Program-made: the position numbers and the translations under genes
The notes under the pieces: generated by a model
Database searches by the model: none
Seen by the model: only the letters and a program-made list of their open reading frames with translations
What the model was told of the DNA's origin: nothing
Assembly (NCBI RefSeq): GCF_028368995.1
Contig: NZ_JAQNDL010000003.1
Coordinates: forward strand, 608,001 to 672,000
Direction: 5' to 3'
Origin: Nannocystis bainbridge
Lineage (GTDB): Bacteria > Myxococcota_A > Polyangia > Nannocystales > Nannocystaceae
DNA length: 64,000 nucleotides
Part shown: positions 27,414 through 46,134 of the stretch, one piece after another
How positions within the stretch are numbered: position 1 is the stretch's first letter
Layout: the number at the start of each line of letters is the position of its first letter

Positions 27414-27504
27414 AGCCGCCTCCGTGCGGCCCCCCGCCCAGCTCTGTCCTGCCCCCCGACCCGCGCCCGCTCGCCCCGCCGCCTGCCGCCCGGCCCTCCG
27501 CGCG

Positions 27505-29942: not shown

Positions 29943-30358
29943 CCCTCGTCGCCTGGCCGCACCTCGCGGCGCATGCCTCGCGCCGCAACCGTAGCGGCGA
30001 ATCCGAGATCGGGTGAGCCCAGCGCGGCGCGACCGTGATGTCGACGATCGAGCCGCGCGCGAGGTCGTCGCTGACGACGCCTCGGCGGCCCGAGGTCGGC
30101 CGATCCCGCCGCTCACGTCACCACGCGTCAGGCTGCCGTCACGTCGGCGCTCCGTACGGATCGCGGATGCACGCCGCCGTCCGTCCGCCGGGCGCTGGCC
30201 TCGCCGCCTCGACCGACCTCGCGGCGCGGCCCGGCGGCGCGCTCCGGCGAGGTCGCGGGCCTTCGGGTCTGCGAGGCGAGTTTGCGCAATTTTTTGCGGT
30301 CTCCCGCGTCGGCCAAAACCTTCCCCGCGGCGCGCAACTCGCCTATTCTTTGCGCCCC

Positions 30359-31321
30359 ATGTTCCAGCTTCGCTTCTCGCCGCTCCTGGCCGTGTTCCTC
30401 GCCGTACCTGTGCTCCTGTCCGCCTGCGTGTGCGGCCCCGGGCCCAACGTGGGCGGTTACGACGACCCCTCCGGCAAAGACCCGCCGCGCTCGCTCCAGG
30501 GCGTCAAGTTCATCGAGAGCGAGAAGGGCGAGCCCGAGGTCATCGGCTGCGCCGACGGCCAGCGCGAGGGCTTCGCCGACCTCACCCGGCACAAGCGGGT
30601 CGCCGGCTGCCTCGCCACCTGGGAGGGCACCAAGAGCCTGCGCGACAAGCCGACCGGCAAGGTCTGCGGCGACGACAAGGGCGTCTGCACCTCGCCCGCC
30701 GACGCCTGCTCCAAGGGCTGGCACGTGTGCGGCTACCAGGGCAAGCACGAGGACCTCAAGCGGCACACCACCGCCAACGCCTGCAACAAAGAGGCGGGCC
30801 CCGGCAAGTTCGTCGCTGCCATGAGCCACGGTCAGACCGAGGACCTGTGCCCGCCGCCGCCGACCGCCGAGACCGTGTTCCCGTGCATGGACTCGGGCAT
30901 CTGCTCCGAGCCGGTCTGCTGCGGTGACGGCTGCGCGTTCGGCAAGTGCCGCGACGCCATCTGGCGCGGCCAGACCAAGATCTCGCTCGGCAAGGCCGAG
31001 GGCTGCGGCTCGGTCACCTCCGAGCGCAACGGCGGCATCCTGTGCTGCTACGACGGCGACGGCGACCCCGCCGCGGCCGCTGGCGGCGAGACCCCGCCCG
31101 CCGGCGCCGACCCGACCACCCCGCCCGCCGGCACCGACCCGGGCACGCCGCCGACCGGCGCCGCTCCGACCGGCACCCTGCCGACCGGCGCCCCGGCTGG
31201 CGCCGCTCCGACCGGCACCACCCCGGCCCCGTCGACCGCCACGCCCACCGACCTCACCGTCCCGACCGGCGGCCCCGCTCCGACCCCCGGCACCAGCGCC
31301 AAGAAGCCCGGCTCCAAGTAG
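30359..31321 (+). CDS. Cys-rich lipoprotein with Pro/Thr-rich tail
   Basis: LLSAC lipobox; GCADGQREGF; many Cys; low-complexity C-terminus. Confidence 0.8.
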   Translation: MFQLRFSPLLAVFLAVPVLLSACVCGPGPNVGGYDDPSGKDPPRSLQGVKFIESEKGEPEVIGCADGQREGFADLTRHKRVAGCLATWEGTKSLRDKPTGKVCGDDKGVCTSPADACSKGWHVCGYQGKHEDLKRHTTANACNKEAGPGKFVAAMSHGQTEDLCPPPPTAETVFPCMDSGICSEPVCCGDGCAFGKCRDAIWRGQTKISLGKAEGCGSVTSERNGGILCCYDGDGDPAAAAGGETPPAGADPTTPPAGTDPGTPPTGAAPTGTLPTGAPAGAAPTGTTPAPSTATPTDLTVPTGGPAPTPGTSAKKPGSK

Positions 31322-31342
31322 CCGACCTCGCGGCCTGCCGCG

Positions 31343-31430
31343 CCTGACTCGAGGGACATGCCCACCCGGGCATGTCCCTTTTCGCATGTCCTCGCGAACA
31401 TGTTCGCGAGAACATGTCCGAACCGCCATG
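31343..31430. repeat. 14-bp-phased CATG array (7 cores)
   Basis: Cores at 31343, 31357, 31371, 31385, 31399, 31413, 31427. Confidence 0.88.
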
Positions 31431-31456
31431 CGCTGCAGGCCTTGAACTGCCGCCCG

Positions 31457-31632
31457 GACCTGTCCGCAGAGCCAGCCGACAACCCGAACTCCCGCCTTCG
31501 ACCTGTCCGCAGAGCCAGCCGACGCCCTCGCGCCGACCCGATGAGCCCCCGCGCCCGACCTGTCCGCAGAGCCAGCCGACGCCCTCGCGTCGAGCTCGAT
31601 CCTCTGACCTGCCCCCGAGGACAGCCAGCCGC
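31457..31632 (+). repeat. Tandem repeat ACCTGTCCGCAGAGCCAGCCGAC (3 copies plus 1 variant)
   Basis: Copies at about 31458, 31501 and 31558, and a variant at about 31607. Confidence 0.85.
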
Positions 31633-31652
31633 GAGATGCCCCGTGCAGCGCT

Positions 31653-31967
31653 TCAGGCCGCGATCTCGCCGCTGCGCACGCCGCTGACGTAGTGACCGAG
31701 CGCGTGCAGCTCCGGCCGCATCACCTCCATCACCGGCGACGTCGTCACGTCCGTCGCGTGCCCCCAGAACTGCAGGCGGCGCCCGATCCACTCCGCGTCC
31801 GCGCCGACCGGCGGCAGCTGGACCGCGCGCAGGCGCAGGGCCGCGTGGCATCGCAGCCACGCGCCGGTGCTGCGGTCGCGCACGCCCACGCACTCGTCGG
31901 CCCGCAGGTGATACTCCGTGTGCTTGGTCGCAAACACGCGATGACGGCGGCGGTTCTTCGGGTTCAT
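31653..31967 (-). CDS. Small hypothetical protein (RRRHRVFxTxxTEYH type)
   Basis: Compact 104-aa ORF with natural codon bias; the N-terminal motif resembles small myxobacterial hypotheticals. Confidence 0.75.
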   Translation of the reverse strand: MNPKNRRRHRVFATKHTEYHLRADECVGVRDRSTGAWLRCHAALRLRAVQLPPVGADAEWIGRRLQFWGHATDVTTSPVMEVMRPELHALGHYVSGVRSGEIAA

Positions 31968-32059
31968 GCGACGGAGCGTGCCAAACCCGCCTGCCGCACC
32001 GCAAAAAACCGGCGTACTTCGGCGGGCGCGGCCGACGCACCTGCTACACTCCCTGCATC

Positions 32060-32752
32060 GTGTCGACCTCGCCGTTTGCGAATCTGCCGCGCTTCCGGCC
32101 CGCCAGCTTCTGGTTGTTGGTCGCCGCCACGGCCACCAGCGGGTTCGTCTCCGACCTGCCGCTCGCCGACCGGCTCCTGCTCGGCGCCTCGTTCGTCGCC
32201 GACCCCGCCCCCTGGCAGCCGCTCACCGCGCCGTTCCTGTTCCCCAACGGCCAGCTCGCCGGCCTCATCGGTACGGGCCTGCTGCAGTGGTTCGTCGGCA
32301 GCCGCGTCGAGGCGCGGCTCGGCCCCGCGCGCTACCTCGGCCTCGTCCTCGGCGGGGCCGTCCTCGGCTACCTCGCGCTCGGCCTCGTCGGCCTGGCCGT
32401 GCCCGCCGCCCTCGCGGTCCCGCACGGCGGCACCATCCCGATCGACATCGCCGCCGTGGTCGCGTTCGGCGTGCTGTTCGCCCGCGACCCGCTGGCGCTG
32501 TTCGGCCTCCTGCCGATCACCGCGCGCAGCTTCGCCAGCGTCGCCGTCGCGCTCCTGCTCCTCGGCCCGCTGCTGCGCGGCGGCTGGCCCGACATCGTGC
32601 CCGGCCTGGTCGCCGCCGGCATCGCCCTCGGCGTCACCCGTCGCTGGCAAAAGCAGCCCGCGTCCGGCAAAGTCGGCCCGCGCAAGGCCAGCAAGAGCAA
32701 GCGCCCGCGCCACCTGCGGATCGTCGACGGCCGCGAGCAGTACCTGAATTGA
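32060..32752 (+). CDS. Rhomboid-like / DUF1751-like membrane protein
   Basis: PWQPLTAPF and WFVGSRVEARLG..RYL; multi-TM; no catalytic GxSG visible; C-terminal HLRIV...YLN. Confidence 0.7.
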   Translation: MSTSPFANLPRFRPASFWLLVAATATSGFVSDLPLADRLLLGASFVADPAPWQPLTAPFLFPNGQLAGLIGTGLLQWFVGSRVEARLGPARYLGLVLGGAVLGYLALGLVGLAVPAALAVPHGGTIPIDIAAVVAFGVLFARDPLALFGLLPITARSFASVAVALLLLGPLLRGGWPDIVPGLVAAGIALGVTRRWQKQPASGKVGPRKASKSKRPRHLRIVDGREQYLN

Positions 32753-32771
32753 CGCTCCGCCCCGCGCTCAC

Positions 32772-32826
32772 GGACCTGTCCCCGGCGACCTGTCCCTGAC
32801 GACCTGTCCCGCGCGACCTGTCCCTA
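32772..32826 (+). repeat. 14-bp tandem GACCTGTCCC x4
   Basis: CCTG at 32775, 32789, 32803, 32817. Confidence 0.85.
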
Positions 32827-32835
32827 CAACCATCC

Positions 32836-34272
32836 TTGAATGACGAGCCCGAAGTGACCTTCCGAAGCGACGAGCCGCGCGAAGCGGCGATGACGACCAG
32901 CGTGGCCCGGCCGGCGCCGTCGCGGCCGCTGCGTCGCGTGATGCTGCGGGTCACCGACGGCCCCGACCGCGACGCCCAGGTGCAGACCGCCCGGCCGCGG
33001 CTGACGATCGGCCGCAGCGCGGTCAACGACCTCGTGCTGACCGACAGCTCGATCAGCGGCCTGCACGCCGAGCTGCTGCTCGGGGCCGGCGGCCCGCACG
33101 GCGCGGTGCTGCTGCGCGACCTCGGCAGCACCAACGGCACCCACGTCGGCGGGGTGCGGATCCGCGAGGCGTGGATCGAGCCGGGCGCGACGCTGCACGT
33201 CGGCAAGACCGCGATCGCGTTCCTCGCCGAGGACGAGGTCCAGGTCCCGATCTCGCGCCAGACCCACTTCGGCGCGCTGCTCGGCTCCAGCCCCGGCATG
33301 CGCGAGCTGTTCGCCGTGCTCGAGCGCATCGCCGACACCGACATGAGCGTGCTCGTCGGCGGCGAGACCGGCTCGGGCAAGGAGCTGGTGGCGCGCGCGC
33401 TGCACGACGAGTCGCCGCGGCACAAGGGCCCGTTCGTGGTCCTCGACTGCAGCGCCCTGCCGCGCGAGCTGGCCGAGGCCGCGATCCTCGGCCACCGCAA
33501 GGGCGCCTTCACCAGCGCGCTCGAGAGCCGCGCCGGCGCGTTCGAGGAGGCCCACGGCGGCACCCTCTTCCTCGACGAGATCGGCGAGCTGCCGCTCGAG
33601 CTGCAGCCCAAGCTGCTGCGCGTGCTCGACCGCCGCGAGGTCCAGCGCATCGGCGAGACCCAGGTCCGCAAGGTCGACGTCCGCGTGGTCGCGGCGACCC
33701 ACCGCGACCTCAAGACGATGGTCGGCCAGGGCACCTTCCGCGAGGACCTGTACTTCCGCCTGTCGGTCATGACCGTCGAGCTGCCGCCGCTGCGCGAGCG
33801 CGGCGACGACATCGCCCTGCTGGCCGAGAAGTTCGTCGGCGACTTCACCCGCCCGCGCGGCGGCGGCGTCGTGCTCAGCCCGGCCGCCCGCCGGGCCCTC
33901 GCCGCTCACCCCTGGCCCGGCAACGTCCGCGAGCTCAAGAACACCATCGAGCGCGCGGTCCACTTCGCCAGCGCCGGGGTGATCGAGCCCGCCGACCTGT
34001 TCCTCGGCCGCCCGGGCCGCCCGGTGCCCGCCCCCGCGCCCGTCGCCTCGCTGCCCACCCTCGCCGGCGAGGAGGTGCTGTTCACCCAGCCGTTCAAGGA
34101 GGCCAAGCAGACCCTGCTCGACGCCTTCGAGCGCCGCTACTTCGCCCGCCTGCTCGAGCAGCACGACGGCAACCTCAGCCGCGCCTCCGCCGCCGCCGGC
34201 ATCACCCGCTACTACCTGCGCGAGCTGCTGAAGCGCCTCGGCCTCCACCGCGTGAAGGACGAAGAGCCATGA
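32836..34272 (+). CDS. FHA-domain sigma54-dependent transcriptional activator
   Basis: FHA (IGRS...SGLH...DLGSTNGT), GETGSGKE, GAFTSA, FLDEIGE, WPGNVREL, Fis-type HTH. Confidence 0.95.
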   Translation: MNDEPEVTFRSDEPREAAMTTSVARPAPSRPLRRVMLRVTDGPDRDAQVQTARPRLTIGRSAVNDLVLTDSSISGLHAELLLGAGGPHGAVLLRDLGSTNGTHVGGVRIREAWIEPGATLHVGKTAIAFLAEDEVQVPISRQTHFGALLGSSPGMRELFAVLERIADTDMSVLVGGETGSGKELVARALHDESPRHKGPFVVLDCSALPRELAEAAILGHRKGAFTSALESRAGAFEEAHGGTLFLDEIGELPLELQPKLLRVLDRREVQRIGETQVRKVDVRVVAATHRDLKTMVGQGTFREDLYFRLSVMTVELPPLRERGDDIALLAEKFVGDFTRPRGGGVVLSPAARRALAAHPWPGNVRELKNTIERAVHFASAGVIEPADLFLGRPGRPVPAPAPVASLPTLAGEEVLFTQPFKEAKQTLLDAFERRYFARLLEQHDGNLSRASAAAGITRYYLRELLKRLGLHRVKDEEP

Positions 34273-34934
34273 CCCGAGAGACATGTCTCCAAGGCCATCC
34301 CGAGGCGGCCCGCGCCGCCGCGGGGCCGGCGGATCCTGACATGCCCTGCCCCGAAGGACAGGTCGCTCCGCTCCCGGCGATCGCGCTCCGCCCCTCGACC
34401 TCCGCCGCGACCGCCCTCGAAGCTGTCCTCTCGACCATGTCCTCCGAGACCTGTCCCTCCGGACATCCTCGCTCCCCCATCCCCGCGGTCCTGCGCACCG
34501 CCGCCTTGATCTGCTGGGCCGCGCTGGCGGGCGCCTGCGGCAATCGCAGCGGCGACCCGGTGCGCACGGCCCAGGCCTTCACCGCCGCGGTCCAGCGCGG
34601 CGACATGGACGCCGTCTACGGGCTGATCGAGCGCGCCGCCAGCGAGCAATTGGTCGCCGCCGCCGCCCAGGCCTCCGACCAGGTCGGCGGGCGCCGGCGC
34701 ATCGAGCCGGCCGAGATGCTGCAGATCGTCGACGTCGACCCCAACTTCGAGCTGGCCAGCGCCGAGCTGCTCGGCGACGTCGACCTCGCCGACGCCGAGG
34801 ACGGCACCTTCGCCCAGGTGCGCCTGAACGGCAGCCAGCAAGAGAGCCACACGCTCACGCTCGTGCGCGAAGAAGGCGCCTGGCGTGTACGGATCCCCCT
34901 GCCTCCGCTTAACTCTACCGCCACTACCCCATGA
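34269..34934 (+). CDS. Hypothetical lipoprotein (NTF2/DUF4878-like); start 34269 or 34437
   Basis: LAGAC lipobox; C-terminal LVREEGAWRV; ATGA overlaps at both ends. Confidence 0.65.
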   Translation: MTRETCLQGHPEAARAAAGPADPDMPCPEGQVAPLPAIALRPSTSAATALEAVLSTMSSETCPSGHPRSPIPAVLRTAALICWAALAGACGNRSGDPVRTAQAFTAAVQRGDMDAVYGLIERAASEQLVAAAAQASDQVGGRRRIEPAEMLQIVDVDPNFELASAELLGDVDLADAEDGTFAQVRLNGSQQESHTLTLVREEGAWRVRIPLPPLNSTATTP

Positions 34935-35866
34935 ACTCGTTCGAACCACGCCCCACCGGCCGCCCCGCCGTCGTCGGCTGGCTGCTGCCGTTCTTCTGTG
35001 TCAGCGCCGCCCTGCTCGCCCACTGGCTGCTCAGCGTCCCGCCCGGCCCGTTGCCGCCGCCCGTCGCCAAAGAGGCCCCGCCCAAGCCGAGCCCGGCCCC
35101 TGCTGCCGGCGGCGACGACGACGACGACAAGGACAAGGCCGGCTTCGAACCCTTCACCTCGCCGCGCGCCGACGGCCTGCTCGCGCAGCTGCACGGGGCC
35201 TACGACGCCGTCGGGTTCAAGGCCGAGCCGACCTTCGAGGCCTGGAGCGTGGCCCACCGCCCGCTCATCACCCAGATCATCACCGCCACCCGCCTGCAGG
35301 CGTTCAAGGGCGTCGTGCCTTCCCCCTCGGTGTCGACCTCGAACGTCGAGTGTCACACCATCCGCTGCCGCTTCACGCTGTCGAGCAGCAAGCAGGAGGA
35401 CCTGCAGCTGCTCCTCGACTCGGTCGCCACCCTGCAGCTCGACGGCGCCCCGCTGTGGCACACCTGGAAGCCTGACGAGATCGCCGAGGAGCCGACCAAG
35501 CGCGCCAACGCCAAGCCGCGCATGCGCACGCAGGTGGTCGTGTCGTTCGCCCGCGACCTGCCCAAGCTCGACCAGATCAAGCTGCAGTCGGGCGCGCCGC
35601 TCAAGCCGGCCTCGATCACGCCGGTCAAGGTCCCCGGCGCGACCCCGGGCGCGCCGACCACGAACCCGTTCGGCCCCGCAGGCACGGCCATGGGCCCGCA
35701 CCCGTCCACCTCGATGCCCGGCAGCACGGCTCAGCCCAGCAGCACGGCTCAGCCCAGCACCGCCAAGCCCGGCAGCGCCGCCAAGCCCGGCAGCACCGCC
35801 ACGCCCGGCAGCACCGCCACGCCCGGCAGCACGCCGAGCACCAAGCCGCCTGCGCACGCGCCCTGA
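34931..35866 (+). CDS. Hypothetical membrane-anchored protein with Pro/Ser/Thr repeat tail
   Basis: N-terminal TM; VECHTIRC; PGSTA(T/K) repeats. Confidence 0.75.
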   Translation: MNSFEPRPTGRPAVVGWLLPFFCVSAALLAHWLLSVPPGPLPPPVAKEAPPKPSPAPAAGGDDDDDKDKAGFEPFTSPRADGLLAQLHGAYDAVGFKAEPTFEAWSVAHRPLITQIITATRLQAFKGVVPSPSVSTSNVECHTIRCRFTLSSSKQEDLQLLLDSVATLQLDGAPLWHTWKPDEIAEEPTKRANAKPRMRTQVVVSFARDLPKLDQIKLQSGAPLKPASITPVKVPGATPGAPTTNPFGPAGTAMGPHPSTSMPGSTAQPSSTAQPSTAKPGSAAKPGSTATPGSTATPGSTPSTKPPAHAP

Positions 35867-36150
35867 GCCTCCTCGCAGCTCGTGTCTCGCTCGCAGAGAC
35901 ACCAGCGCCCGCGCACGCGCCCTGAGGCTCCTCGCAGCTCGTGTCTCGCTCGCAGAGACACCAGCGCCCGCGCACGCGCCCTGAGCCTCCTCGCAGCTCG
36001 GTGTCTCGCTCGCGGAGACACCAGACTGCCCGCGCACGCGCCCTGAGGCTCCTCGCAGCTCGGTGTCTCGCTCGCCAAGACACCAGACTGCACGCGCACG
36101 CGCCCTGAGGCTCCTCGCAGCTCGGTGTCTCGCTCGCAGAGACACCAGCG
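35852..36150 (+). repeat. About 60-bp tandem repeat x5 with internal hairpin
   Basis: gcgcacgcgccctgag(g)ctcctcgcagctc(g)GTGTCTC-gctcgca-GAGACACcag. Confidence 0.92.
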
Positions 36151-36398
36151 GACGCGTGCCTGCCACCGCCGTCCTGGCGACCACGGCGATCCAGCGCTTT
36201 CGTGCCCGCGCTGACGCGCACCCGCGGCCCTCATCCGGCAGCGCCGATGATGTTGCGTCCGAATCCTCCGCGAGCATGCGCGGCCGCGACCGCCCCGACA
36301 GCGACGGCGATTTCAGCTTGCTCTCGAGTTCTCGCGTCCACGGCCGCGAGGGCGCGCCCGGCCCGGCGGCCGTCACCCGCGGCTGCTACGCTGCCTGC

Positions 36399-36833
36399 GT
36401 GCCACGCACCGCGCTCGGCCTCCTCCTCTCCCTCGGCAGCCTCGCAGCCTGCGGCCCGGGCGACCGCCTCGAAGGCACGCTGTCGGTCGACAGCGAAGAA
36501 TATGGCGCATGGACCATGTCCCCGACGACATGTGTCTCGGGCGAGCGCCGCCAGTTCTTCGGCGTCGATCTGACCGAGCGCGGCGACAACGGCAGCGGCG
36601 TGCGGATCGTCGACGACCCGGTCGACGGCTACTCGCTGGCGATGAACATCCCCGACCACGACCTCGCGCTCGTCGTCACCGCCGCCAGCAAGTGCGAGGT
36701 GTTCGACGTCCACCTCGAGCGCGGCAACGTCCGCGTCAACAACATCTGGGCCGTCCAGGGCCACGCGATCCTCGAGTGCCGCGCCGACGGGATGGAGATC
36801 GTCGCCGACTTCCAGTTTTCGGGCTGTACCTAA
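36399..36833 (+). CDS. Hypothetical lipoprotein
   Basis: GTG start; LAAC lipobox; beta-rich domain ending FSGCT. Confidence 0.75.
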   Translation: MPRTALGLLLSLGSLAACGPGDRLEGTLSVDSEEYGAWTMSPTTCVSGERRQFFGVDLTERGDNGSGVRIVDDPVDGYSLAMNIPDHDLALVVTAASKCEVFDVHLERGNVRVNNIWAVQGHAILECRADGMEIVADFQFSGCT

Positions 36834-36882
36834 GGACATGCCGTTATCGACATGTCCCCATGGACATGCCCGATCGGGCATG
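36823..36882. repeat. 14-bp-phased CATG array (5 cores)
   Basis: Cores at 36823, 36837, 36851, 36865, 36879. Confidence 0.85.
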
Positions 36883-36899
36883 CCATCTTCGCCAGCCGC

Positions 36900-37529
36900 T
36901 CAGAAGTTCACCCGCAGCCCGAGCCCGAGCCCGCGCGGGAGCGGCAGCGGGGCCACGATGGGGCGGCCGCGCCGGGCCAGACCGACGTCCCGGAGGTCGC
37001 GCAGCGGCACGGCCCAGCGGTTCCACAACATCGAGCCGGCGATCATCGCCGCGAAGGCGGCCGAGGTGGTCGCGGCCGCGGCGATGCCGATCATCGCCTT
37101 GCCCTCGAAGAGCTCGGTGCGGGCCGTCTCGACCCAGAAATAGATCGCCGGCCCGATGGCGGCGATCCCCCAGAACGTCACGCCGATCCCGAGCCCGCGG
37201 CGGACCCTGAACCGGCGCTTGGCGAACTCGAGGAACGTGTCCGTCTCGCCGTCCTCCTCGACATCCTCCTCGTAGGACTCCCAGGCGCCGCTCAGATCCA
37301 TCCCGGTGATTCCCTCGAGATTGCGGTACTCGCGGTACTGCCGGCCCATCCCGGCCGGCTCGGGCACCTCGGTGTCGAGCGGCGTGAAGGGATCGGCGAC
37401 GGCAGCGGTCTCCGGCGCTGGCGCCATCTCCCCCGCAGGCGCGGTCTCCGGCGCTGGCGCGACGTCCTGCGCCCCGGCGATCGGCTGCAATCCGGCGCCC
37501 AACAACCACACCGACACGACGCTCACCAT
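36900..37529 (-). CDS. Hypothetical membrane protein
   Basis: Signal-like N-terminus, two TM segments, C-terminal GLGLGLRVNF. Confidence 0.7.
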   Translation of the reverse strand: MVSVVSVWLLGAGLQPIAGAQDVAPAPETAPAGEMAPAPETAAVADPFTPLDTEVPEPAGMGRQYREYRNLEGITGMDLSGAWESYEEDVEEDGETDTFLEFAKRRFRVRRGLGIGVTFWGIAAIGPAIYFWVETARTELFEGKAMIGIAAAATTSAAFAAMIAGSMLWNRWAVPLRDLRDVGLARRGRPIVAPLPLPRGLGLGLRVNF

Positions 37530-37864
37530 GCCGCCGATCGTATCCCGCCCGCTTCGGGCAAACACGCAGCAACGTGTTTCATCGCCTCCCCGAGCGCGAC
37601 GCACGATCGCCGCACACCGTCGAGCCGTGCTCGAGTGATGCCGCGGAGTACATCGTTCAAGCCGCGACGATCGGCGAGCCGGCTTTCCATGCGCACGCGC
37701 CGCCTTCTCGCGCCGTCTTTGGCGAAGCCGTCCATGCACCGCGAAGGCGACGAGCTTCGCCACAGCCGGCACTCCAGTTCACGAAACCAACCGAAGCGCG
37801 ACGAGCAGCCCGGGCGCACTCGCGTCTGCCGGCATGGAGCGGCCGCGCCGCACAACACTATCTA

Positions 37865-37966
37865 CATGTCTTTTCATACATGCTCTCATGGGCATGTCTG
37901 ATGAACAATGTCCTATGAAACATGTTCTTTTGAACATGCCCGTCCGAGCATGTCGCCTCACCAAGG
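37865..37966. repeat. 14-bp-phased CATG array (7-8 cores)
   Basis: Cores at 37865, 37879, 37893, 37907 (AATG), 37921, 37935, 37949, and possibly 37963. Confidence 0.9.
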
Positions 37967-38157
37967 TCGCATCCCTCGACCATCTTCCGCGCGCGGTCCG
38001 TCGTGTCTTCGCCGACGAGCGCCTCGCCTCGCGTCTCCACCCGCGAGCGCCTCGCCTCGCGTCTCCACCCTCGAGCGCCTCGCGCCCCTCGCTCGCGAAG
38101 CGGCCGGAGGCGACGGTACGTCGCGCTCCGGCCGGCGGTCTCGAGCCTCTGCGCTGA

Positions 38158-38976
38158 TTAGCCGCTGAGCTTCTTCTTCAGCTCTTCGAGCTGGGCGTCG
38201 ACCTCGGCGGCCTTGAGGTCGTCGGCGCTGAGCTCTTCCGCGGGCGGGGCCGACTTCGCGTCGCCGCGGCCGGAGCCGAGCTGGCGCGGGTCTTCGGACT
38301 TGCCGGCGGTGAGGGCCATCTTGCGCTTGAGGGCCTCGAGCTGGTCGTCGACATTACCGGCCTCGAGCGCCTTGAACTGCGACTCCAGGCTGCCTTCCTC
38401 GAGCACGCCGCCGATCTCCGAAGTCGCCTCGGCCTCGGCCTCGAGCTGCGTGACGCGCTCGGACATGCGGCCGAAGGTGTCGAACGACGAGGTCGAGTTG
38501 ATGCTCGACAGCGTCTCGTTGATCGTGCGCTGGGCCTCGGCTCGCTTCTGGCGCGAGACCAGCAGGTTGCGCTTGCGCTTGGCCTCCTCGATCTTCGAGT
38601 CGAGGCCGCGGAGGGCGACCTTGAGCTGCTCGACCGAGTTCTTCTGGGCCTCCCACTGGTCCTTGAGCTGCGAGGCGACCTCGTCGTGGTCGCCCTTGCG
38701 CTGCAGGGCAGCGCGGGCGAGGGTCTCGTCGCCGGCCTTGAGGGCCAGCATCGCCTTCTTCTCCCACTCGGCCGCCTTGGTAGCCTCCTGCTCCCATTGC
38801 TTCTTGATGCGCTTCTCATCGGCGATGGCGATCGCCACCTGCTTCTTGGCCTCGATGAGCTGCTGCTTCATGTCGACCAACACCTGATTGAGCATCTTCT
38901 CCGGGTCTTCGGCCCGGTTGATGAGCTCGTTGATGTTGGAGCGGATGAGGGTGCCGAGGCGTGAAAAAAGTCCCAT
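38158..38976 (-). CDS. pspA: PspA/IM30 family protein
   Basis: MGLFSRLGTLIRSNINELINRAEDPEKML...; coiled coil; FGRMSERV. Confidence 0.93.
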   Translation of the reverse strand: MGLFSRLGTLIRSNINELINRAEDPEKMLNQVLVDMKQQLIEAKKQVAIAIADEKRIKKQWEQEATKAAEWEKKAMLALKAGDETLARAALQRKGDHDEVASQLKDQWEAQKNSVEQLKVALRGLDSKIEEAKRKRNLLVSRQKRAEAQRTINETLSSINSTSSFDTFGRMSERVTQLEAEAEATSEIGGVLEEGSLESQFKALEAGNVDDQLEALKRKMALTAGKSEDPRQLGSGRGDAKSAPPAEELSADDLKAAEVDAQLEELKKKLSG

Positions 38977-38977
38977 C

Positions 38978-39397
38978 TCAGTTGCCCTCCTGGATCTCGA
39001 TGTGGGTCGGGGCGGGGCGCCACGGGCTGAGCTGTTCGAGATGGCCGTCGATGGCCATCGCAATGTCCTCGATCATGGCCTGGAACTCGCTGAAATCGAG
39101 GTCCGCGAGCTGATGCGCGCCCGACAGCAGGATCTGGTCGCCGTCGAGCGCGTAGGCGCAATGCAGCGTGGTGTCGTTGAACTCGAGCAACCGGCGGAAC
39201 AGCCCCGTGTGATCGGGCGTCGCCGCGGTGACCGCGAAGATCGGCGACGAGTAGAGCACGATCGGCTCGTCGATGCGGACCACGATGCGGATGCCCGAGT
39301 GACTCTCAGGCCCGACCACCCAGGTGTCGTCGGAGACCTTCTCGTGGGGCAGCTCCATCCGGAGCATGTACGATTCCAGCGTTTCTGCGTGACTCAT
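38978..39397 (-). CDS. YbjN/CesT-like chaperone-fold protein
   Basis: 139 aa, LFRRLLEFN...AYAL; immediately upstream of pspA. Confidence 0.75.
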   Translation of the reverse strand: MSHAETLESYMLRMELPHEKVSDDTWVVGPESHSGIRIVVRIDEPIVLYSSPIFAVTAATPDHTGLFRRLLEFNDTTLHCAYALDGDQILLSGAHQLADLDFSEFQAMIEDIAMAIDGHLEQLSPWRPAPTHIEIQEGN

Positions 39398-39772
39398 GAG
39401 GGTTCGTTGGGCCGGGGGCGGCGGCAGCGGCCGGAGCGGACGCATCGAGCCAGTGAGACAAGTCTGTGGCCCGCCTGCGGCACCTGAGCCCGGCAGCACG
39501 CCCGAGGTCAGCCACTATACGCGACGGCCCGCGGGGGCGGCAACCCAAACCCCGTCAGGCGCGCCGCTTTGCAGCCGCACGGGCCCGTGGTATCCGAAAG
39601 CGGCCCGCTCGACCGACGAACTCCCTGCCGGGGCCGCGCCGGTTTTACGGTCGCGGGGGCCTGAAACACCCCGACCGGGCTCCACGGAGCGCCTCCTCGT
39701 CATGACAAACCCTGCTCGGCGTCCTCACCCGCCTCGCTCTTTCGCCCCCTGCTGCCGCCGAGGGCCCGGTCG

Positions 39773-40579
39773 ATGAGCGCGCGCGAAGCGGGCGCAGGCG
39801 AGGGCCGCGTGCCGCGGCACGTCGGCATCATCATGGACGGCAACGGCCGCTGGGCGCGGCAAAAGGGCCTGCCGCGCGAGGTCGGCCACGAGCACGGCGC
39901 CGACGCCGTCCGCCGGGTGGTCCGCGCCGCCCGCGAGCTCGGCGTCGAGGCGCTGACGCTGTTCGCGTTCTCGAGCCAAAATTGGGACCGGCCGCCGCAG
40001 GAGGTGTTTCACCTCATGCAGCTGCTCAACCGCTACCTGCTCGAGGAGCGGGCCGAGATCCTCGACAACCAGATCCGGCTGACCACCGTCGGCGACACCG
40101 AGCGCCTGCCGAGCTACGTGCGCGACCCGATGCGCGAGCTCATCGCCGCCTCGGCCGACAACCAGAAGATGACGCTGTGCCTGGCGCTCAGCTACGGCGG
40201 GCGCGAGATGATCACCGACGCCGCCCGGCGCATCGCCCGCGCCGTGCAGGCCGGCAGCCTGCGCCCCGACGAGATCGACCCCAAGACCTTCGCCTCGTAC
40301 CTCGACTCGAGCCGCCATCTGCCGTCGCTCGACCTCTTGATCCGCACCAGCGGCGAGCACCGGATCTCCAACTTCTTCCTGTGGGAGGTCGCTTACGCCG
40401 AGCTGTTCTTCACCGAGGTGCTGTGGCCCGACTTCGCGCGCGAGCACCTGATGGAGGCGCTCGATGACTTCAGTCGCCGCGAGCGCCGCTTCGGGCTGCT
40501 CCCCGGCGAGTCCGACGCCGACGCGCTCGACGAGCCGCCGGCCGTCGGGATCTTCCCCGCGCAACGAGGCAAGGGCTGA
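39773..40579 (+). CDS. uppS: Undecaprenyl/polyprenyl diphosphate synthase
   Basis: PRHVGIIMDGNGRWA, FSSQNW.RP, IRTSGEHRISNF, RERRFG. Confidence 0.97.
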   Translation: MSAREAGAGEGRVPRHVGIIMDGNGRWARQKGLPREVGHEHGADAVRRVVRAARELGVEALTLFAFSSQNWDRPPQEVFHLMQLLNRYLLEERAEILDNQIRLTTVGDTERLPSYVRDPMRELIAASADNQKMTLCLALSYGGREMITDAARRIARAVQAGSLRPDEIDPKTFASYLDSSRHLPSLDLLIRTSGEHRISNFFLWEVAYAELFFTEVLWPDFAREHLMEALDDFSRRERRFGLLPGESDADALDEPPAVGIFPAQRGKG

Positions 40580-40580
40580 C

Positions 40581-41444
40581 GTGGCCGATCTGATCAAGCG
40601 CTTGTGGACGGCGATCGTCCTCGTCCCGATCCTGTTGGTCGCCCTGTTCGTCGACCGCTCGCCGTGGAGCATCCTCGCCATGTCGGTGCTGTTCGGCGGC
40701 TTCGCCCTCGACGAGTACCTGCGCATGGCGCTGCCGCAGCGCTCGCTGTCGGGCCCGGCCGCGCTGGCGGGCCCGGAGTACGGCCTGCGCGCGATCCTGG
40801 GGGCGATCGGCGCCGCCGTGATCGCGCTGCCGATGGTGTTCGGCGCCGGCCGGGTGCTGCCGCCGCTGCTGATGTTCTCGGTGATCGCCGTCGCCCTGGT
40901 GCTGCTGGCGCGCAAGCAGGCGCTCGAGCAGGCCGGCCGGCACATGTCGGTGTGCCTCGCGGGGCTGCTCTACGTGCCGCTGCTCGCCTCGCTGTGGCCG
41001 CAGATCAAGCACGTGTTCGGGCCCGGCTGGCTGTTCGTCACCCTGGCGATCGCGTTCATGTCCGACACCGGGGCGTACGCCTTCGGCCGCCTGTGGGGCA
41101 AGCACAAGCTCTACCCGGCGGTCAGCCCCGGCAAGACGTGGGAGGGCTCGCTCGGCGGCCTCGTCGGCGCCAACGTGGCCACGGTGGGCTTCGGCTCGGC
41201 GTTCCTGCTGCCCGAACTCGGGGTCGGCCACGCGATCGTGCTCGGCGTCCTCGGCTCGCTCGCCGGCCAGGTCGGCGACCTGTTCGAGTCGATGCTCAAG
41301 CGCAGCCACGGCGTCAAGGACTCCGGCAACCTGCTGCCCGGCCACGGCGGCATGCTCGACCGCGTCGACGCGCTGCTGTTCGTCGGCCCGGTCGTCTACT
41401 ACTTCGCCGCCAACGTGGTGTTCGCCGGCGGCCTCCGCGGATGA
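40581..41444 (+). CDS. cdsA: Phosphatidate cytidylyltransferase
   Basis: SDTGAY, SPGKTWEG, GDLFESMLKR..GVKDSG..LPGHGGMLDRVD. Confidence 0.97.
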   Translation: MADLIKRLWTAIVLVPILLVALFVDRSPWSILAMSVLFGGFALDEYLRMALPQRSLSGPAALAGPEYGLRAILGAIGAAVIALPMVFGAGRVLPPLLMFSVIAVALVLLARKQALEQAGRHMSVCLAGLLYVPLLASLWPQIKHVFGPGWLFVTLAIAFMSDTGAYAFGRLWGKHKLYPAVSPGKTWEGSLGGLVGANVATVGFGSAFLLPELGVGHAIVLGVLGSLAGQVGDLFESMLKRSHGVKDSGNLLPGHGGMLDRVDALLFVGPVVYYFAANVVFAGGLRG

Positions 41445-41513
41445 ACGAAAGGGCATGTCCCTTCGGACATGCCCTTCGTGACACTGACCAAGGGCCATGT
41501 CCGCGAGGACATG
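41440..41513. repeat. 14-bp-phased CATG array
   Basis: Cores at 41454, 41468, (41482), 41496, 41510. Confidence 0.8.
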
Positions 41514-41523
41514 GCCCTTCGCG

Positions 41524-42354
41524 CTACTGGCAGCGCGGCGCGGTGAACGTGCCCTCGAGCTGGGGCTTGGTGTCGAAGAACGGGGAGTCGACGTGGCACA
41601 GGCGGCCCACGACCTCCTTGTCGTCGATCGAGATCAGCTCGAAGGTGGCGCTGAAGCTGCCGCCGCCGAACGGGCACAGGTCGGGCCCGTCCACCTCGCC
41701 GGCCTCCATCGCGTGGCCGGTGACGTCGGGCCCGAGCAGGTGGTAGAGGCCGGGCGTCTGGTAGGCCACGGGGATCCGGATCGACACCTGCCAGTTGTTG
41801 CCGCACTCGACGCCGGCGTTCGGGTCGGCGCAGGTGGCCACCTGGTTCGAGAGCCGCACGTGCAGCGTGTTCGGGTCGGACGGCTCGCCGCCGCTGGTGC
41901 CGGAGCTGCCGCCGGTCGGATCGGGATCGGGGGGCACCTGCGCGTCGGTGTAGGCCAGCGCGGCGGCGTCGATCTCGATCGCCTCGCCCTCGCACGGGGT
42001 CGGCTCCGGCGGCACGTCACCCGAGGTGGCCGAGGTGACGGTGCTCGAGGCCGAGGTCATGCCGGTCGGGTCGGCGCCGGTGGTGGCCCCGCTGGTGCCC
42101 GGGTCGGTGTCGCTGTCGGGGTTCGGCCAGGTGGTCGCGCTCGTGCCCGGGCTGCTGGCCGAGCTGCCGCCGCTGGTGGTCAGCGGGTCGCCCTCGGTGG
42201 CGCCGCCGGTCGAGCTGTCGCCGTCAGTGCCGTCGCTGGCACTACCGCTGGAGCTGCTGTCGACGCTGGCGGTGTCGGAGTCGCTGGGCTTCGAGTCGCA
42301 CCCGAGCGCGAGCGCGGCGACGAGGCTGAGGCAGGAGAAGCTGTAAGAACGCAT
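41524..42354 (-). CDS. Hypothetical lipoprotein with Ser/Thr stalk
   Basis: ALGC lipobox; low-complexity linker; Cys-containing beta domain ending GTFTAPRC. Confidence 0.8.
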   Translation of the reverse strand: MRSYSFSCLSLVAALALGCDSKPSDSDTASVDSSSSGSASDGTDGDSSTGGATEGDPLTTSGGSSASSPGTSATTWPNPDSDTDPGTSGATTGADPTGMTSASSTVTSATSGDVPPEPTPCEGEAIEIDAAALAYTDAQVPPDPDPTGGSSGTSGGEPSDPNTLHVRLSNQVATCADPNAGVECGNNWQVSIRIPVAYQTPGLYHLLGPDVTGHAMEAGEVDGPDLCPFGGGSFSATFELISIDDKEVVGRLCHVDSPFFDTKPQLEGTFTAPRCQ

Positions 42355-42548
42355 GCGGTGGAGTTAGCACGCGCCGCCACGGCCCGCACCGGGGAAGCCA
42401 CGCGGCTTCGATGTGCGCGCGGCCCATGACAGGTGCGTCGCACGATGACGCGCGCGCGTGTCAGCGGCGATTCGTCGTTCTCCGGCCGCGAGAGCCCGCT
42501 GCACGCGGGCCGGCGCGCGCGAGGGCTCGCCGCGACATGACCTCGATG

Positions 42549-44897
42549 TCAGGGTCCGAGATCGATCTGCAGCGTACCGCCCTGCGCGATGTCGCCGTGC
42601 ACGAGGCGCGGCTGCGCCAGCGGCTGGCCTTGCCAGCTCGCCGAGGCGGACCCGAGCGCGTCGTCGGAGGTCACCGGCGCGACGATCCGCAGGTCGCCGC
42701 CCTCGAGGTGCAAGATCGCCTCGCTGAAGATCGGGCTGCCGAGCAGATAGAAGTCGGTGCCCGCGATCGGGAACACGCCGAGCGCCGCGAACGCGAGCCA
42801 GGCGCTCATCGTCCCGCCGTCGTCGTTGCCGGGCAGGCCCGACGGCGTGTCGCCGTAGCGGTTGCGCAGCACCCATCGCGACCAGCGCGCGCTGCCGGCG
42901 TGATCGCCCAGGGCGCTGAACACGAACGGCGCGTGGATGTCGGGCTCGTTGCCCTGCCAGTAGTATTTCTGCGGCATGAGGCCGAGCACCTCCGCCTCGG
43001 AGTCGACGAAGAACTGCTGCAGCCGGGTCATCGCCGCCGCCGGCCCGCCCATCGCTTCGGCCAGCCCCTCCATGTCGTGCGGCGCGTACCAGGCGTACTG
43101 CAGCGCGTTGCCCTCGGCGTAGTAGTCCTGCCAGATCAGCGGATCGGTCACCGCCACGAACGCGCCGGCCTCGGAGCGCGCGACCAGCAGCTGTTGCGCC
43201 GGGTCCCACACGTTCTTCCAGAAGCCGGCCCGCTCGGCGAACATCGCCGCGTCCTCGGGCTCGCCGAGCACCTCGGCCAGGGTCGCCAGAGCGAAGTCGT
43301 TGTAGGCCGACTCGAGCGTCCACGACGACGAGCTGGCGCCCGCCTCGACCGGGACGTAGCCGAGCTCGATGTACTTGTCGACCGCCATGCGCCCGCCGTA
43401 CGGCGAGCCGGGCGGCACCGGGGCCATCGCCGTCGCGCGCATCGCCGCGTAGGCCGAGGCCAGCCCGATCTCGTCCGGATCGAAGCCCTTGAGGACGCTG
43501 TCGGCGTAGACCACCGTCGCGCTCTCGCCGTCCATGCCGTTGGTGTAGCCGGTGCCCAGCGGCCAGCGCGGCATCCATCCGCCGTCCTCGGCCATCCGCG
43601 TCAGCGAGCGCAGCATGTCGCGCTGGTACTCCGGATAGAGCAGCGTGAGCAGCGGGTGCAGCGTGCGGAACGTGTCCCACAGCGAGAAGTCGGTGTAGTA
43701 CGGCCCGTCGGAGTTGTGGACCGCATCGTCGAGCCCGCGGTAGCTGCCGTCGACGTCGCTGGCCAGCGTCGGCATCAGGAGCGCGTGATAGATGGCGGTG
43801 TAGAACAGCCGGAAATCGCGGCCGCTGTCGCCGCGCACCTGCACGCGCGCGAGCTCGTGCTCCCACGCGGCCTCGGCGGCGCCCCGCGCGGCCTCGAAGT
43901 CGAGCTCCGGCGCCTCGGCGGCGAGGTTCATCGCCGCGTGCTCGGCGTCGACGAACGACAGCCCGACGCCGACGACCACCGGCTCGCCCGGCTCGAAGCG
44001 CAGATAGGCGCCCACCGCCTCGCCCTCCTGCGCGCCCACTCCGGCCTGCGGCTCGCCGTCGTTCCAGCTGCCGAACTCGACGAACGGCCGCGAGGCTCGC
44101 AGCGCGTAGTAGACCTTGACCCCGCCGTGGCGCTCCGAGTAACCGCCGGACACGTGGTGGTGGCCGCGGATCTCCCCGGCCCCGGCGTCGACCTCGACCT
44201 GCCCGCTGACAGTCTCGACGTCGGGCAGCCCGTGCGCGAGATCGAGGATCACCACCGGCTCCTGTCCTTCGGGGAAGGTGAAGCGCTGCAGGCCGACCCG
44301 CGCCGTCGCCGTCAGCTCGGCCGCGATCCCGCCGGCGAGGGTGACCGCGTAGTAGCCGGGGCTGGCCGTCTCCGTGGCCTTGTCGAGCGCGAGCCGATAG
44401 CCGTTCGGTTCGGTCTTGGCGGGGCTCATGCCGAGGCTCGGCATCACCCGCACGGACCCGTAGTCGACGATGCCGGTGCCGTGCATGCGCGTCTGCGAGA
44501 AGCCCTGCACCTCGGTGTCGTCGTAGTGGTAGCCGGCGCAGTGCGAGAAGCCGAGCGCGAAGCCGCCGGCGAGGGTGGTGTCGGGGCCGGGCCGGGCCAG
44601 GCCGAACGGCACCTGCGGACCTGGATACGCGCTCCCGACCCCGTAGCCGGATCCACCGGTGCCGATGAACGGGTTGACGTGCTGGACCAGCGGCGCCGGG
44701 GCGAACATGCCCGGAAGTTCAGGTTCTTCGGGACCTGTCGTCGGGGACAGGCTCGTCGCGTCGCCGGTGCTGCCGGTGGTCGTCACGCCGGTGCCGCCGG
44801 TGGTGCTGCTGCCGCCCTCGCTCTCGGTCGCGCCCGCCGACGGCGAGCCGTTGCAAGCTGCGAGCAAGAACGCGGCAGGGAGCAGACGCGGGAGCAT
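42549..44897 (-). CDS. GH92 alpha-mannosidase family lipoprotein
   Basis: VNPFIGT, PFG, FSQTRMHGTG, FSLWDTFR, EGN, GNEP, GNDDGGTMSAW. Confidence 0.95.
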   Translation of the reverse strand: MLPRLLPAAFLLAACNGSPSAGATESEGGSSTTGGTGVTTTGSTGDATSLSPTTGPEEPELPGMFAPAPLVQHVNPFIGTGGSGYGVGSAYPGPQVPFGLARPGPDTTLAGGFALGFSHCAGYHYDDTEVQGFSQTRMHGTGIVDYGSVRVMPSLGMSPAKTEPNGYRLALDKATETASPGYYAVTLAGGIAAELTATARVGLQRFTFPEGQEPVVILDLAHGLPDVETVSGQVEVDAGAGEIRGHHHVSGGYSERHGGVKVYYALRASRPFVEFGSWNDGEPQAGVGAQEGEAVGAYLRFEPGEPVVVGVGLSFVDAEHAAMNLAAEAPELDFEAARGAAEAAWEHELARVQVRGDSGRDFRLFYTAIYHALLMPTLASDVDGSYRGLDDAVHNSDGPYYTDFSLWDTFRTLHPLLTLLYPEYQRDMLRSLTRMAEDGGWMPRWPLGTGYTNGMDGESATVVYADSVLKGFDPDEIGLASAYAAMRATAMAPVPPGSPYGGRMAVDKYIELGYVPVEAGASSSSWTLESAYNDFALATLAEVLGEPEDAAMFAERAGFWKNVWDPAQQLLVARSEAGAFVAVTDPLIWQDYYAEGNALQYAWYAPHDMEGLAEAMGGPAAAMTRLQQFFVDSEAEVLGLMPQKYYWQGNEPDIHAPFVFSALGDHAGSARWSRWVLRNRYGDTPSGLPGNDDGGTMSAWLAFAALGVFPIAGTDFYLLGSPIFSEAILHLEGGDLRIVAPVTSDDALGSASASWQGQPLAQPRLVHGDIAQGGTLQIDLGP

Positions 44898-45154
44898 GAT
44901 CGCATCCTACTCCCGGCCGCGGACCCCGCGCCGGCCGTGAGAGATGAGTTATGCGGGCATGACCCGCCGCCTCTGGATAGCCAGCCGGAGCCGTCGCTCG
45001 CCCGGCTAGCGGGCGACATCACCGATGTCGGGGGTGCCAGGCCACCAACGTCCCGAAACGCGACCGGGAACGCCCGGTCACTCGCGCGAGTGACTCGCCG
45101 TTCCATCGGCGATATGACCTGCCTGCAAGCGCAGGTCGAAGCCCCCGCGGCCGT

Positions 45155-45406
45155 TCACAGCTTCTCGTCGTAGCTGCGCGGCTCGTGATCCATCATCGAT
45201 TTGCAGCCGACGATCTGCGTCACGGGGACGCGGTCGCGGTCGGGAAACAGCACGAAATCCTCGCCCGACTCGGTGACCACGTCGAGCACCTGGGCCTGGA
45301 AGGTCTCGCCGCTGCGCAGCTCGACCTGCACGGGCCGCTTGAAGTGGGCGGACTCTTCGAGCATGTCGAGGAAATCACAACGTCCGGTCGGCTCTGTCTG
45401 CTGCAT
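45155..45406 (-). CDS. Rof/YaeO-like Rho-binding antiterminator
   Basis: CDFLDMLEE...VELRSGETFQA..LD..T..GEDF resembles Rof CDxxDxLE...LELKDGExxQA; 83 aa. Confidence 0.65.
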   Translation of the reverse strand: MQQTEPTGRCDFLDMLEESAHFKRPVQVELRSGETFQAQVLDVVTESGEDFVLFPDRDRVPVTQIVGCKSMMDHEPRSYDEKL

Positions 45407-45522
45407 GGGCTCTCCTGCTTCCGCGGTCGCAGAAACCATGGTCGCGCCCGGAGTCGGAGGCAAGCTCGGCCGCCGCACCGCGAGAACGAGCGGGCTTTCA
45501 CCGCACCGCCGACGCGGCGAAC

Positions 45523-45969: not shown

Positions 45970-46134
45970 CCCGGCAGCATGCCACGCCCGCGCGGAGCCG
46001 GACAAGCATGCGAGATTCAGCTCCCGAGCCGAGCCCGTCGAAGGACCAGGCCGCGCCAGTCATGCCCCGAAGAGCCTCCTGGCCCCTCTCCTGGCGTATG
46101 CCTCCCGCATGTCCCAAGAGACAGTGACCGGGGC

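Follow-up and report, generated by a model that had tools for sequence, protein, structure and literature searches.

Phased arrays of a 14-bp inverted repeat at gene ends in Nannocystis bainbridge

A window of 64,000 nucleotides from the Nannocystis bainbridge genome (contig NZ_JAQNDL010000003.1, positions 608,001 to 672,000) carries ladders of the tetramer CATG at exact 14-nt steps, the longest of which occupies window positions 37865–37952. These ladders are members of a genome-wide family of 982 arrays built from a 14-bp inverted repeat, TGYCC-N4-GGRCA, in which two 5-bp arms flank four free bases. Abutment of two such sites (..GGRCA|TGYCC..) creates CATG, which is thus the seam of the array and not, as a first-pass annotation of the window had proposed, the core of a unit completed by a 10-nt spacer. 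Our favoured reading, to which we assign a probability of about 0.42, is that the arrays may serve the cooperative binding of a dimeric, sequence-specific DNA-binding protein on abutting sites.

The elementary unit is a 14-bp inverted repeat

The genome comprises 11,048,555 bp in 5 contigs (71–72% GC) and holds 39,940 CATG tetramers. A spacing of 14 nt separates 3736 pairs of them, compared with 72 pairs for 13 nt and 79 for 16 nt. The 262 pairs spaced by 15 nt match the codon-periodic background of ~250–300; echoes follow at 28, 42, 56 and 70 nt. When in-phase units are chained into arrays of at least three, the 982 arrays divide into 313 with three units, 266 with four, 230 with five, 129 with six, 37 with seven and 4 with eight, plus one array each of 9, 12 and 20 units, and a further 1048 two-unit pairs lie outside them. 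Arrays are found in every 250-kb bin (1–37 per bin) except the short end bin of contig C4, and no chromosomal domain bias is seen across these bins. The 20-unit array (contig C3:1237916-1238185) has 16 perfect CATG, is strikingly AT-rich and is flanked by a YbjQ-family gene on one side and the gene of a pyridoxal phosphate (PLP)-dependent enzyme on the other.

The logo of the unit reads GGRCATGYCC followed by four free, A/T-enriched bases. We tallied the half-site pair TGYCC-gap-GGRCA at gaps of 0 to 18. At gap 4 it occurs 2828 times, compared with 18–93 times at the other gaps from 0 to 17, and gap 18 shows an echo (778); the reversed-pattern control of the strict 14-bp site gives 21 copies. 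The preference persists outside in-phase CATG pairs (1755 at gap 4 versus 15–87 at the others), and the abutting seam form, GGRCA + TGYCC, occurs 610 times outside arrays versus ~26–77. Beyond the last CATG of an array, one more full site can be read (T.62, C.72, C.68, four free positions, G.56, G.56, one weak position, C.69, A.50), after which there is no signal. Isolated sites mostly lack CATG flanks and are divided between coding (904) and intergenic (876) DNA, out of 1780.

The longest array of the window

Chance is excluded as the origin of the arrays in the window: the three-unit CATG pattern with at most one mismatch has 42 matches where 0.04 would be expected, a number reached in no shuffle out of 100. 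Strict TGYCC-N4-GGRCA sites number 26 against 0.37 expected, a count that likewise none of 100 shuffles attains.

The array at 37865–37952, which like the other CATG arrays has no assigned strand, is an AT-rich, degenerate member of the family with seven cores at 14-nt steps: CATG at 37865, 37879, 37893, 37921, 37935 and 37949, and AATG at 37907. The ladder and its six 10-nt spacers are as the first-pass annotation had listed them, apart from the extent to 37966 given there, which is too long: the final core finishes at 37952, AAGG stands at the in-phase position that follows (37963), and 37953–37966 lie outside the repeat. Its description as the longest array holds for the window, where all others have at most six units, and fails genome-wide, where arrays of 8, 9, 12 and 20 units exist. 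An extra, out-of-phase CATG lies within the second spacer (37883–37886). The AT-richness noted earlier for its spacers is real, with a GC fraction of 0.432 that ranks 44th of 982 arrays from the AT-rich end, compared with a family mean of 0.558 and a genome value of 0.715.

The array contains no strict TGYCC-N4-GGRCA match. Six abutting 14-bp site equivalents can nevertheless be delimited between 37867 and 37950 (37867–37880, 37881–37894, 37895–37908, 37909–37922, 37923–37936 and 37937–37950), with drifted arms such as TGTCT/ATACA, TGTCC/AAACA and TGTTC/GAACA; the fifth, TGTTC-TTTT-GAACA, is a perfect inverted repeat. Judged from these letters, the array is a worn copy in which the CATG seams were kept and the inner CC/GG of the half-sites drifted to T/A.

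Register is kept while the free bases vary

Across the family, 3277 junctions are in phase and only 5 out-of-phase junctions come after an array, which together with the excess of 14-nt over 13-nt CATG pairs upholds the strict register proposed from the single array. The accompanying claim that spacers share almost no identity is right for the central 4 nt, where adjacent spacers agree at 0.32 against 0.27 for random pairs (2512 of 3277 spacers are distinct), and wrong for the outer 3+3 nt, which follow YCC...GGR family-wide and leave only the A/T-enriched centre unconstrained in sequence. Near-identical neighbours account for 2.3% of adjacent units and some arrays are runs of identical units, which shows that units are occasionally duplicated.

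An in-phase array is present in 46 of 51 orthologous intervals from four sister species (a 52nd interval had no anchors), a count in which, for two window arrays, the same array of relatives G010 and G001 was counted twice. Alignable non-array intergenic DNA shows 0.15–0.18 gap openings per mismatch between species. The first-pass annotation had predicted indels in multiples of 14 only. In agreement, the three-unit array at 21672 can be aligned across four species over 76 columns with no gap, with every CATG invariant and the spacers changed, and unit numbers differ by whole units at 53873 (4 versus 5) and 57683 (3 versus 2 versus 4); rare 13-nt steps in the relatives' arrays depart from the prediction. 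Identity to the orthologue is 0.88–0.92 at CATG, 0.67–0.84 at the YCC/GGR arms and 0.62–0.67 at the spacers.

Arrays gather at the 3' ends of genes

Gene positions were taken from our own crude caller, based on codon usage and GC content at third codon positions (GC3), which predicts 8004 genes covering 83% of the genome and on which all positional counts rest. Fully intergenic arrays make up 802 of the 982, and another 94 are entirely within a called gene. The 877 that are not mostly inside called genes are distributed over convergent (482), tandem (174 + 183) and divergent (38) gaps, the genome-wide totals of these gaps being 1460, 2606 + 2475 and 1458, respectively. At least two units are present in 642 of 1224 convergent gaps (52%; gaps of at least 40 nt) and in 122 of 1436 divergent gaps (8.5%), with intermediate tandem counts of 321 of 1742 and 274 of 1654. 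In the tandem context, the median distance of an array is 24 nt to the upstream stop codon and 194 nt to the next start; preferred stop-codon positions are in phase with the 14-nt unit, and the stop codon of 211 of the 8004 genes falls within an extended array. An array lies no more than 400 nt downstream of 6 and upstream of 4 of the 102 tRNAs, counts too low to indicate an association. We rejected the idea of gene cassettes or recombination hotspots, since arrays are found at 20 of 31 large indels and at 24 of 48 small colinear gaps, that is, without enrichment.

Arrays inside genes are translated

A true coding signature around an array was taken to be high GC3 and GC1 above GC2 in the same frame on both sides, with no stop codon across it. 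Flanks were measurable for 78 of the 94 arrays inside called genes, and 76 of these show such a signature; counted as extended arrays, 93 lie inside open reading frames (ORFs). The six hosts that we checked are multidomain proteins of ordinary kinds (three kinases, one SMC-like ATPase, one AMP-binding enzyme and one GGDEF-EAL protein), and the arrays are translated, for example as ..DMS..TCP..GHV...

The AMP-binding enzyme (contig C5:41319-43142) carries a three-unit array, translated as ..EDMLSETCSLDH.., in a variable loop at residues ~180–200, before the TSGST motif. The loop is of equal length in nine homologues, one of them from another genus, so that a test for in-frame insertion of the kind known from Rickettsia palindromic elements, made on this one host, detected no length difference. 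Array-poor relatives have GAC/GCTGTCC-GAAG-RGACAGG at the same place, with a single CTGTCC-GAAG-GGACAG site. In this single case the shared position indicates that the site is older than the arrays and that the array arose in place.

Dense arrays are restricted to one clade

The four-unit ladder occurs 869 times in the window genome, 409–527 times in five 12–13-Mb genomes of the same genus and 1–13 times in five smaller genomes of the genus, and the low counts are not due to fragmentation, since one of the smaller genomes is 9.1 Mb in 40 contigs. The ladder is absent from all 30 genomes examined from other genera. A scan of 400 further genomes of the phylum gave 1–5 matches in 15 of them, the matches listed being plain tandem repeats. 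Dense arrays are found only in one clade within the genus. The array-poor genomes of the genus do hold true short arrays; six orthologous gaps of one such genome contain no CATG arrays, and no analogous periodic 4-mer was found in 200 kb from each of two other genera.

Single sites are graded in the same direction. Their counts, with the reversed control in brackets, are 2271–2846 (21–34) in array-rich genomes, 170–1071 (8–32) in array-poor members of the genus, 246 (47) and 233 (18) in two other genera, and 4–73 (6–47) in the remaining 28 genomes. Literature searches, at the level of listings and abstracts, returned nothing on the motif or on such arrays in Nannocystis.

Arrays fold like ordinary intergenic DNA

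Within a unit, the Watson-Crick frequencies are 0.36/0.55/0.56, compared with 0.43/0.56/0.55 expected from column composition, and across the spacer they are 0.44/0.58/0.57/0.32, compared with 0.42/0.56/0.57/0.28 (n = 3277). Windows of 44 nt fold at −13.7 to −16.6 kcal/mol in arrays and at −14.0 to −15.5 kcal/mol in other intergenic DNA. Real arrays are ~2 kcal/mol more stable than arrays of random units, and most of this difference is kept after permuting their own units. The logo is two-fold symmetric when 318 arrays are oriented by transcription, and no T-run follows these 318 arrays in a test for intrinsic terminators; a terminator scan of 26000–45999 yielded 4 matches where 4.3 were expected, and no match fell at an array. 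To see whether arrays and ordinary hairpins exclude each other, we looked for windows of −24 kcal/mol or lower: 52% of array-free convergent gaps contain one, compared with 36% of gaps with an array when only their array-free parts, which offer fewer windows, are counted.

The first-pass annotation had inferred recognition at the level of DNA from the kept register, and had expected weak RNA structure. Family-wide, both expectations agree with the ordinary folding of array windows, the near-zero covariation and the symmetric logo. They sit less well with the array at 37865–37952, which folds better than its shuffles (z = −2.8), and with a small complementarity excess and two compensatory pairs, which we weigh in the Discussion.

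The pspA locus and other arrays of the window

The longest array lies in a 630-bp gap flanked by two minus-strand genes, 190–205 nt beyond the stop codon of pspA (38158–38976, minus strand; PspA/IM30, Pfam PF04012, E = 7e-51; gene from the crude caller). A GC-rich stem-loop, obtained by computed folding, is located at 38100–38135 on the minus strand, ~25–60 nt past the pspA stop codon, and is present in all five orthologous loci read, the remainder of the gap not being alignable. It is probably pspA's own terminator hairpin. Because this conserved GC hairpin lies between pspA and the array, the latter is not the immediate terminator of pspA. Metatranscriptome contigs of relatives (90–95% alike) over 30001–40000 cover pspA, and one extends 106 nt past its stop codon; none covers the bin with the array, on which they are uninformative.

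On the other side, 336 nt beyond the array, lies a 209-aa ORF (36900–37529, minus strand) that matches no Pfam family. It is present only in the window genome and in relative G005, where two arrays bracket the extra gene. Relatives G001 and G010 have a single array and lack the 209-aa gene; G007 lacks the gene too, and its array abuts the convergent gene. Tandem repeats of other kinds also occur here: a 28-bp repeat at 38016–38083 (2.4 copies, 97% matches) between the array and pspA, and, further upstream, a 62-bp repeat at 35847–36150 (5 copies, 93% matches). Downstream of the pspA orthologue of relative G009 (~10380–10480 of the locus), a GGGGCCAGATCTTG tandem repeat with a 14-nt period and ~7 copies fills the place of the window genome's gap; its period is equal and its sequence unrelated.

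The companion array that the first-pass annotation described as behaving alike does so, with six units, two of them CATT, at 15203–15276. The remaining sister arrays are those at 31357–31430 (6 perfect units), 61949–62008 (5 units), 36837–36882 (4 units, beginning 4 nt past the stop codon of a plus-strand gene in a convergent gap), 53873–53918 (4 units, 5 in three sister species), 7002–7047 (4 units) and 21672–21703 (the 3 units aligned without gaps in four species), together with arrays of 3–4 units starting at 20195, 27354, 46969, 50296 and 57683. Four 14-nt direct repeats, GACCTGTCCCnnnn, at 32773–32824 on the plus strand have the same period and half-site around a CCTG core, because of which the unit is not palindromic and neighbouring units cannot pair.

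Positions 27477–28107 are taken up by a long run of 43–50-bp tandem repeats, and every copy includes GACCTGTCCCTCGGACCAGC, which is related to the half-site family; in an array-poor relative the orthologous gap measures only ~145 nt. A repeat at 1434–1641 has a 15-nt period, ~10 copies and super-periods of 30 and 45 nt; should the region be coding, it would resemble a five-residue repeat in the protein.

Searches for a partner protein or a mobile element

A search for the Y1 transposase RAYT (PF01797) gave no match in any of six array-rich genomes (the window genome and five others), and control genomes gave matches. No element of 150–4000 bp bounded by CATG with matching inverted ends was found: the 46 matches are array-versus-array pairs or perfect palindromes at contig ends. 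Dispersed repeats are few (at most 3 copies), and none has a consistent CATG duplication. Perfect, kilobase-scale inverted duplications near contig ends (C1:4522352-4526271, C1:4531616-4534299, C2:3028820-3031520 and C5:712375-715526) look like assembly artefacts rather than biology.

Two candidate partners were rejected. For the idea of methylation at CATG/RCATGY, the D12 methyltransferase family, the only one searched, lacks clade specificity, being found in 34 of 41 relatives. The array motif, which we take to resemble parS, prompted the idea of a ParB/Noc-like paralogue; ParB_N occurs once per genome nearly everywhere. CRISPR arrays have repeats of ~23–50 nt, unique spacers of ~26–70 nt, one or few loci and cas genes. 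The family does not match this description: the unit here is 14 bp in total, there are 982 loci, and Rfam at gathering thresholds reports two tRNAs only in the window; no search for cas genes was made.

Discussion

The 5-4-5 palindrome, its thousands of isolated copies with arms of only 5 bp, the near-absolute register in spite of saturated spacers, the symmetric logo and the lack of a folding advantage are most simply accounted for by a two-fold symmetric protein that would be cooperative where its sites abut. The conservation of in-phase arrays in sister species, the CCTG repeats with their unchanged 14-nt period and the shared site in the loop of the AMP-binding enzyme also count in favour of this reading. 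Such a protein would read both 5-bp half-sites, which lie 9 bp apart from centre to centre, or about one helical turn. Neighbouring dimers would sit 14 bp apart and bind cooperatively, each turned by the ~120° that follows from B-DNA geometry for a 14-bp step, so that three sites would span four helical turns and the protein would form a coat of 40–100 bp at the ends of genes. Most likely it would serve in marking or insulating boundaries at the 3' ends of genes or in local nucleoid organisation, and not in stopping RNA polymerase outright, since ~80–90 arrays lie inside intact genes; placement at gene ends and tolerance inside these genes suggest, as far as sequence can tell, such a boundary or nucleoid-organising role. 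It is doubtful, though conceivable, that this myxobacterial lineage has a dedicated dimeric protein that polymerises on abutting sites past stop codons, at half of all convergent gene pairs, to insulate adjacent transcription units or absorb the supercoiling that arises between them, which would make the arrays a bacterial counterpart to the boundary elements of eukaryotes. Equally tentative is the suggestion, within that scheme, that the motif spread first as single sites and was concatenated later.

Several observations weigh against binding by a dedicated protein. Sites of a transcription factor would not usually avoid divergent (promoter) gaps as these do, and the coding location of 904 of the 1780 isolated sites fits a drive-maintained motif as well as a binding site. 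No binding protein was found among the neighbours of the 12- and 20-unit arrays or of arrays in short divergent gaps, which are sensor kinases, a PLP enzyme, ankyrin, cupin and YbjQ proteins and include no DNA-binding candidate. Gene positions rest on a crude caller, and the orthologue identity profile is biased upward because the aligner favours CATG-to-CATG matching. As to folding, the minus-strand RNA of the array at 37865–37952 reaches −44.1 kcal/mol compared with −33.8 ± 3.7 kcal/mol for shuffles (z = −2.8, with 3 of 200 as good); complementarity across the spacer exceeds expectation slightly (n = 3277), by 0.02 for two positions of the stem and by 0.046 for the one that closes the loop; one four-species alignment has two compensatory pairs, with a covariation term of −0.38; and among the 318 oriented arrays the sense strand is slightly richer in G and T. 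The sense strand also folds ~1.6 kcal/mol better, as judged from array windows in ++ gaps compared with those in −− gaps, all of them folded as the plus strand.

These folding data speak for an alternative that we consider unlikely and yet live, namely that the arrays act as hairpins in RNA or single-stranded DNA, in the manner of repetitive extragenic palindromic (REP) elements or bacterial interspersed mosaic elements (BIME). REP elements of E. coli stabilise 3' ends, attenuate read-through and stall ribosomes near stop codons, and the arrays would likewise be 3'-end stabilisers, attenuators of read-through from either direction or ribosome stalls near stops, with adjacent units paired as CAUGYCC-loop-GGRCAUG or with whole 10-mers nested. 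The absolute fold energies (~−25 kcal/mol for 4 units and ~−40 kcal/mol for 6) and the REP-like placement, with 482 of 877 arrays in convergent gaps, median distances of 24 nt to the stop versus 194 nt to the start and 211 of 8004 stop codons within an array, are in its favour. Array windows are, however, no more stable than ordinary intergenic windows, and real arrays barely exceed those of random units. An isolated site would form a stem of only 5 bp, yet 1755 exist; hairpins tolerate 1-nt changes in their loops, yet the register is near absolute; and the CCTG direct repeats, which cannot pair, still keep the period. The failure to find RAYT in six of six array-rich genomes, the conserved GC hairpin that pspA has of its own ahead of the array and the ~76–93 arrays inside intact ORFs also count against hairpins. 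We therefore favour action at the level of DNA as a better bet than action through RNA.

Also live, if a shade less probable, is a hyper-abundant palindrome maintained by molecular drive instead of by a role of the individual copies, through biased short-patch repair, methylation-linked repair or ectopic conversion, with arrays arising by replication slippage wherever they are harmless, similar to the highly iterated palindrome HIP1. The similar occurrence of isolated sites in coding and intergenic DNA and the clade-graded abundance (233–246 copies in two neighbouring genera, 170–1071 in array-poor members and 2271–2846 in array-rich members) are as expected of drive; near-identical neighbours (2.3%) and identical-unit runs mean that slippage occurs, the array of the AMP-binding enzyme arose in place with no change of length, and arrays avoid promoter gaps and gather where insertions are tolerated. 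Against this stand the lack of an enzyme candidate, the D12 methyltransferase being family-wide and not clade-specific, and the inability of drive alone to explain exact abutment, the removal of 1-nt shifts and the 52% occupancy of convergent gaps.

A derivation of every 14-bp unit from the footprint of a cut-and-paste transposon, in which a 4-bp CATG target duplication plus a few bases of each inverted terminal repeat were left repeatedly at one spot, fits the palindromic flanks, variable centre, 14-bp step and in-frame copies on paper, and is largely refuted and very improbable given the failure to find an element with CATG bounds and matching inverted ends, the near-absence of dispersed repeats and of any consistent CATG duplication among them, the isolated sites mostly without CATG flanks, and the finding that no insertion accounts for the single in-gene array examined.

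Should a protein indeed coat the arrays, they would represent a new kind of feature of bacterial chromatin, located at gene ends rather than at promoters. A 14-bp ruler without slack makes this array reading easy to test by spacing changes, and the ~1000 natural arrays of 2–20 sites are a ready-made dose series. If repair or conversion drive is responsible instead, the family would be a second clean example, beside the cyanobacterial HIP1, of a genome overwritten by a sequence-specific process, and its course could be traced through the graded series of genomes, whose copy numbers run from a few hundred to almost 3000. The arrays are in addition a practical marker of 3' gene boundaries in these 11–13-Mb genomes, and the in-frame peptide segments they contribute to ~80–90 proteins are relevant to gene annotators.

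Comparison with known systems

REP/BIME elements of enterobacteria and pseudomonads are clade-specific short palindromes of 20–40 nt with hundreds to thousands of extragenic copies, which lie mostly downstream of genes or between convergent genes, often cluster at fixed spacing and are often found near stop codons. As high-copy extragenic palindromes located mainly downstream of genes, clade-specific, clustered and near stops, the Nannocystis arrays resemble them. Unlike REP/BIME, the Nannocystis unit is 14 bp with a 5-bp arm, its sites adjoin directly, all in a single strict register, and the family has no RAYT found with it (six of six genomes) and no folding advantage, with half of its isolated copies in coding DNA.

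HIP1 of cyanobacteria is a contiguous 8-mer palindrome with thousands of coding and non-coding copies, and the Nannocystis motif is likewise a clade-specific palindrome present in thousands of copies in both kinds of DNA. We know of no report of phased arrays or of concentration at gene ends for HIP1, whose function to our knowledge is still unknown, whereas the Nannocystis motif is not a contiguous 8-mer and forms phased arrays at gene ends. Rickettsia palindromic elements are inserted in frame into genes, and the Nannocystis arrays too lie in frame within intact genes and are translated; in contrast, the segment in the single host examined is no insertion (9 homologues, equal loop).

The sites recognised by FNR/CRP-type proteins are 5-4-5 palindromes such as TTGAT-N4-ATCAA, and thus share with the Nannocystis element two 5-bp half-sites and four free bases in 14 bp, a comparison of geometry only. 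The half-site sequence is different, the copy number is ~100 times that of a regulon, and the Nannocystis sites are concatenated.

The omega-repressor heptads, the MetJ metboxes and the direct-repeat units of PhoP/PhoB are tandem operator arrays bound by cooperative dimeric regulators at a few promoters. Cooperative operators and iterons are located in promoters or origins, whereas the Nannocystis family numbers ~1000 arrays at the 3' ends of genes and is scarce in gaps that hold promoters (122 of 1436 divergent gaps versus 642 of 1224 convergent ones), and its 14-bp period matches that of none of the three tandem operator systems. Like them, the Nannocystis arrays consist of short conserved units in an unbroken, strict register, with a variable number of units and few free positions in each, and by this analogy a protein filament on DNA would be the natural reading.

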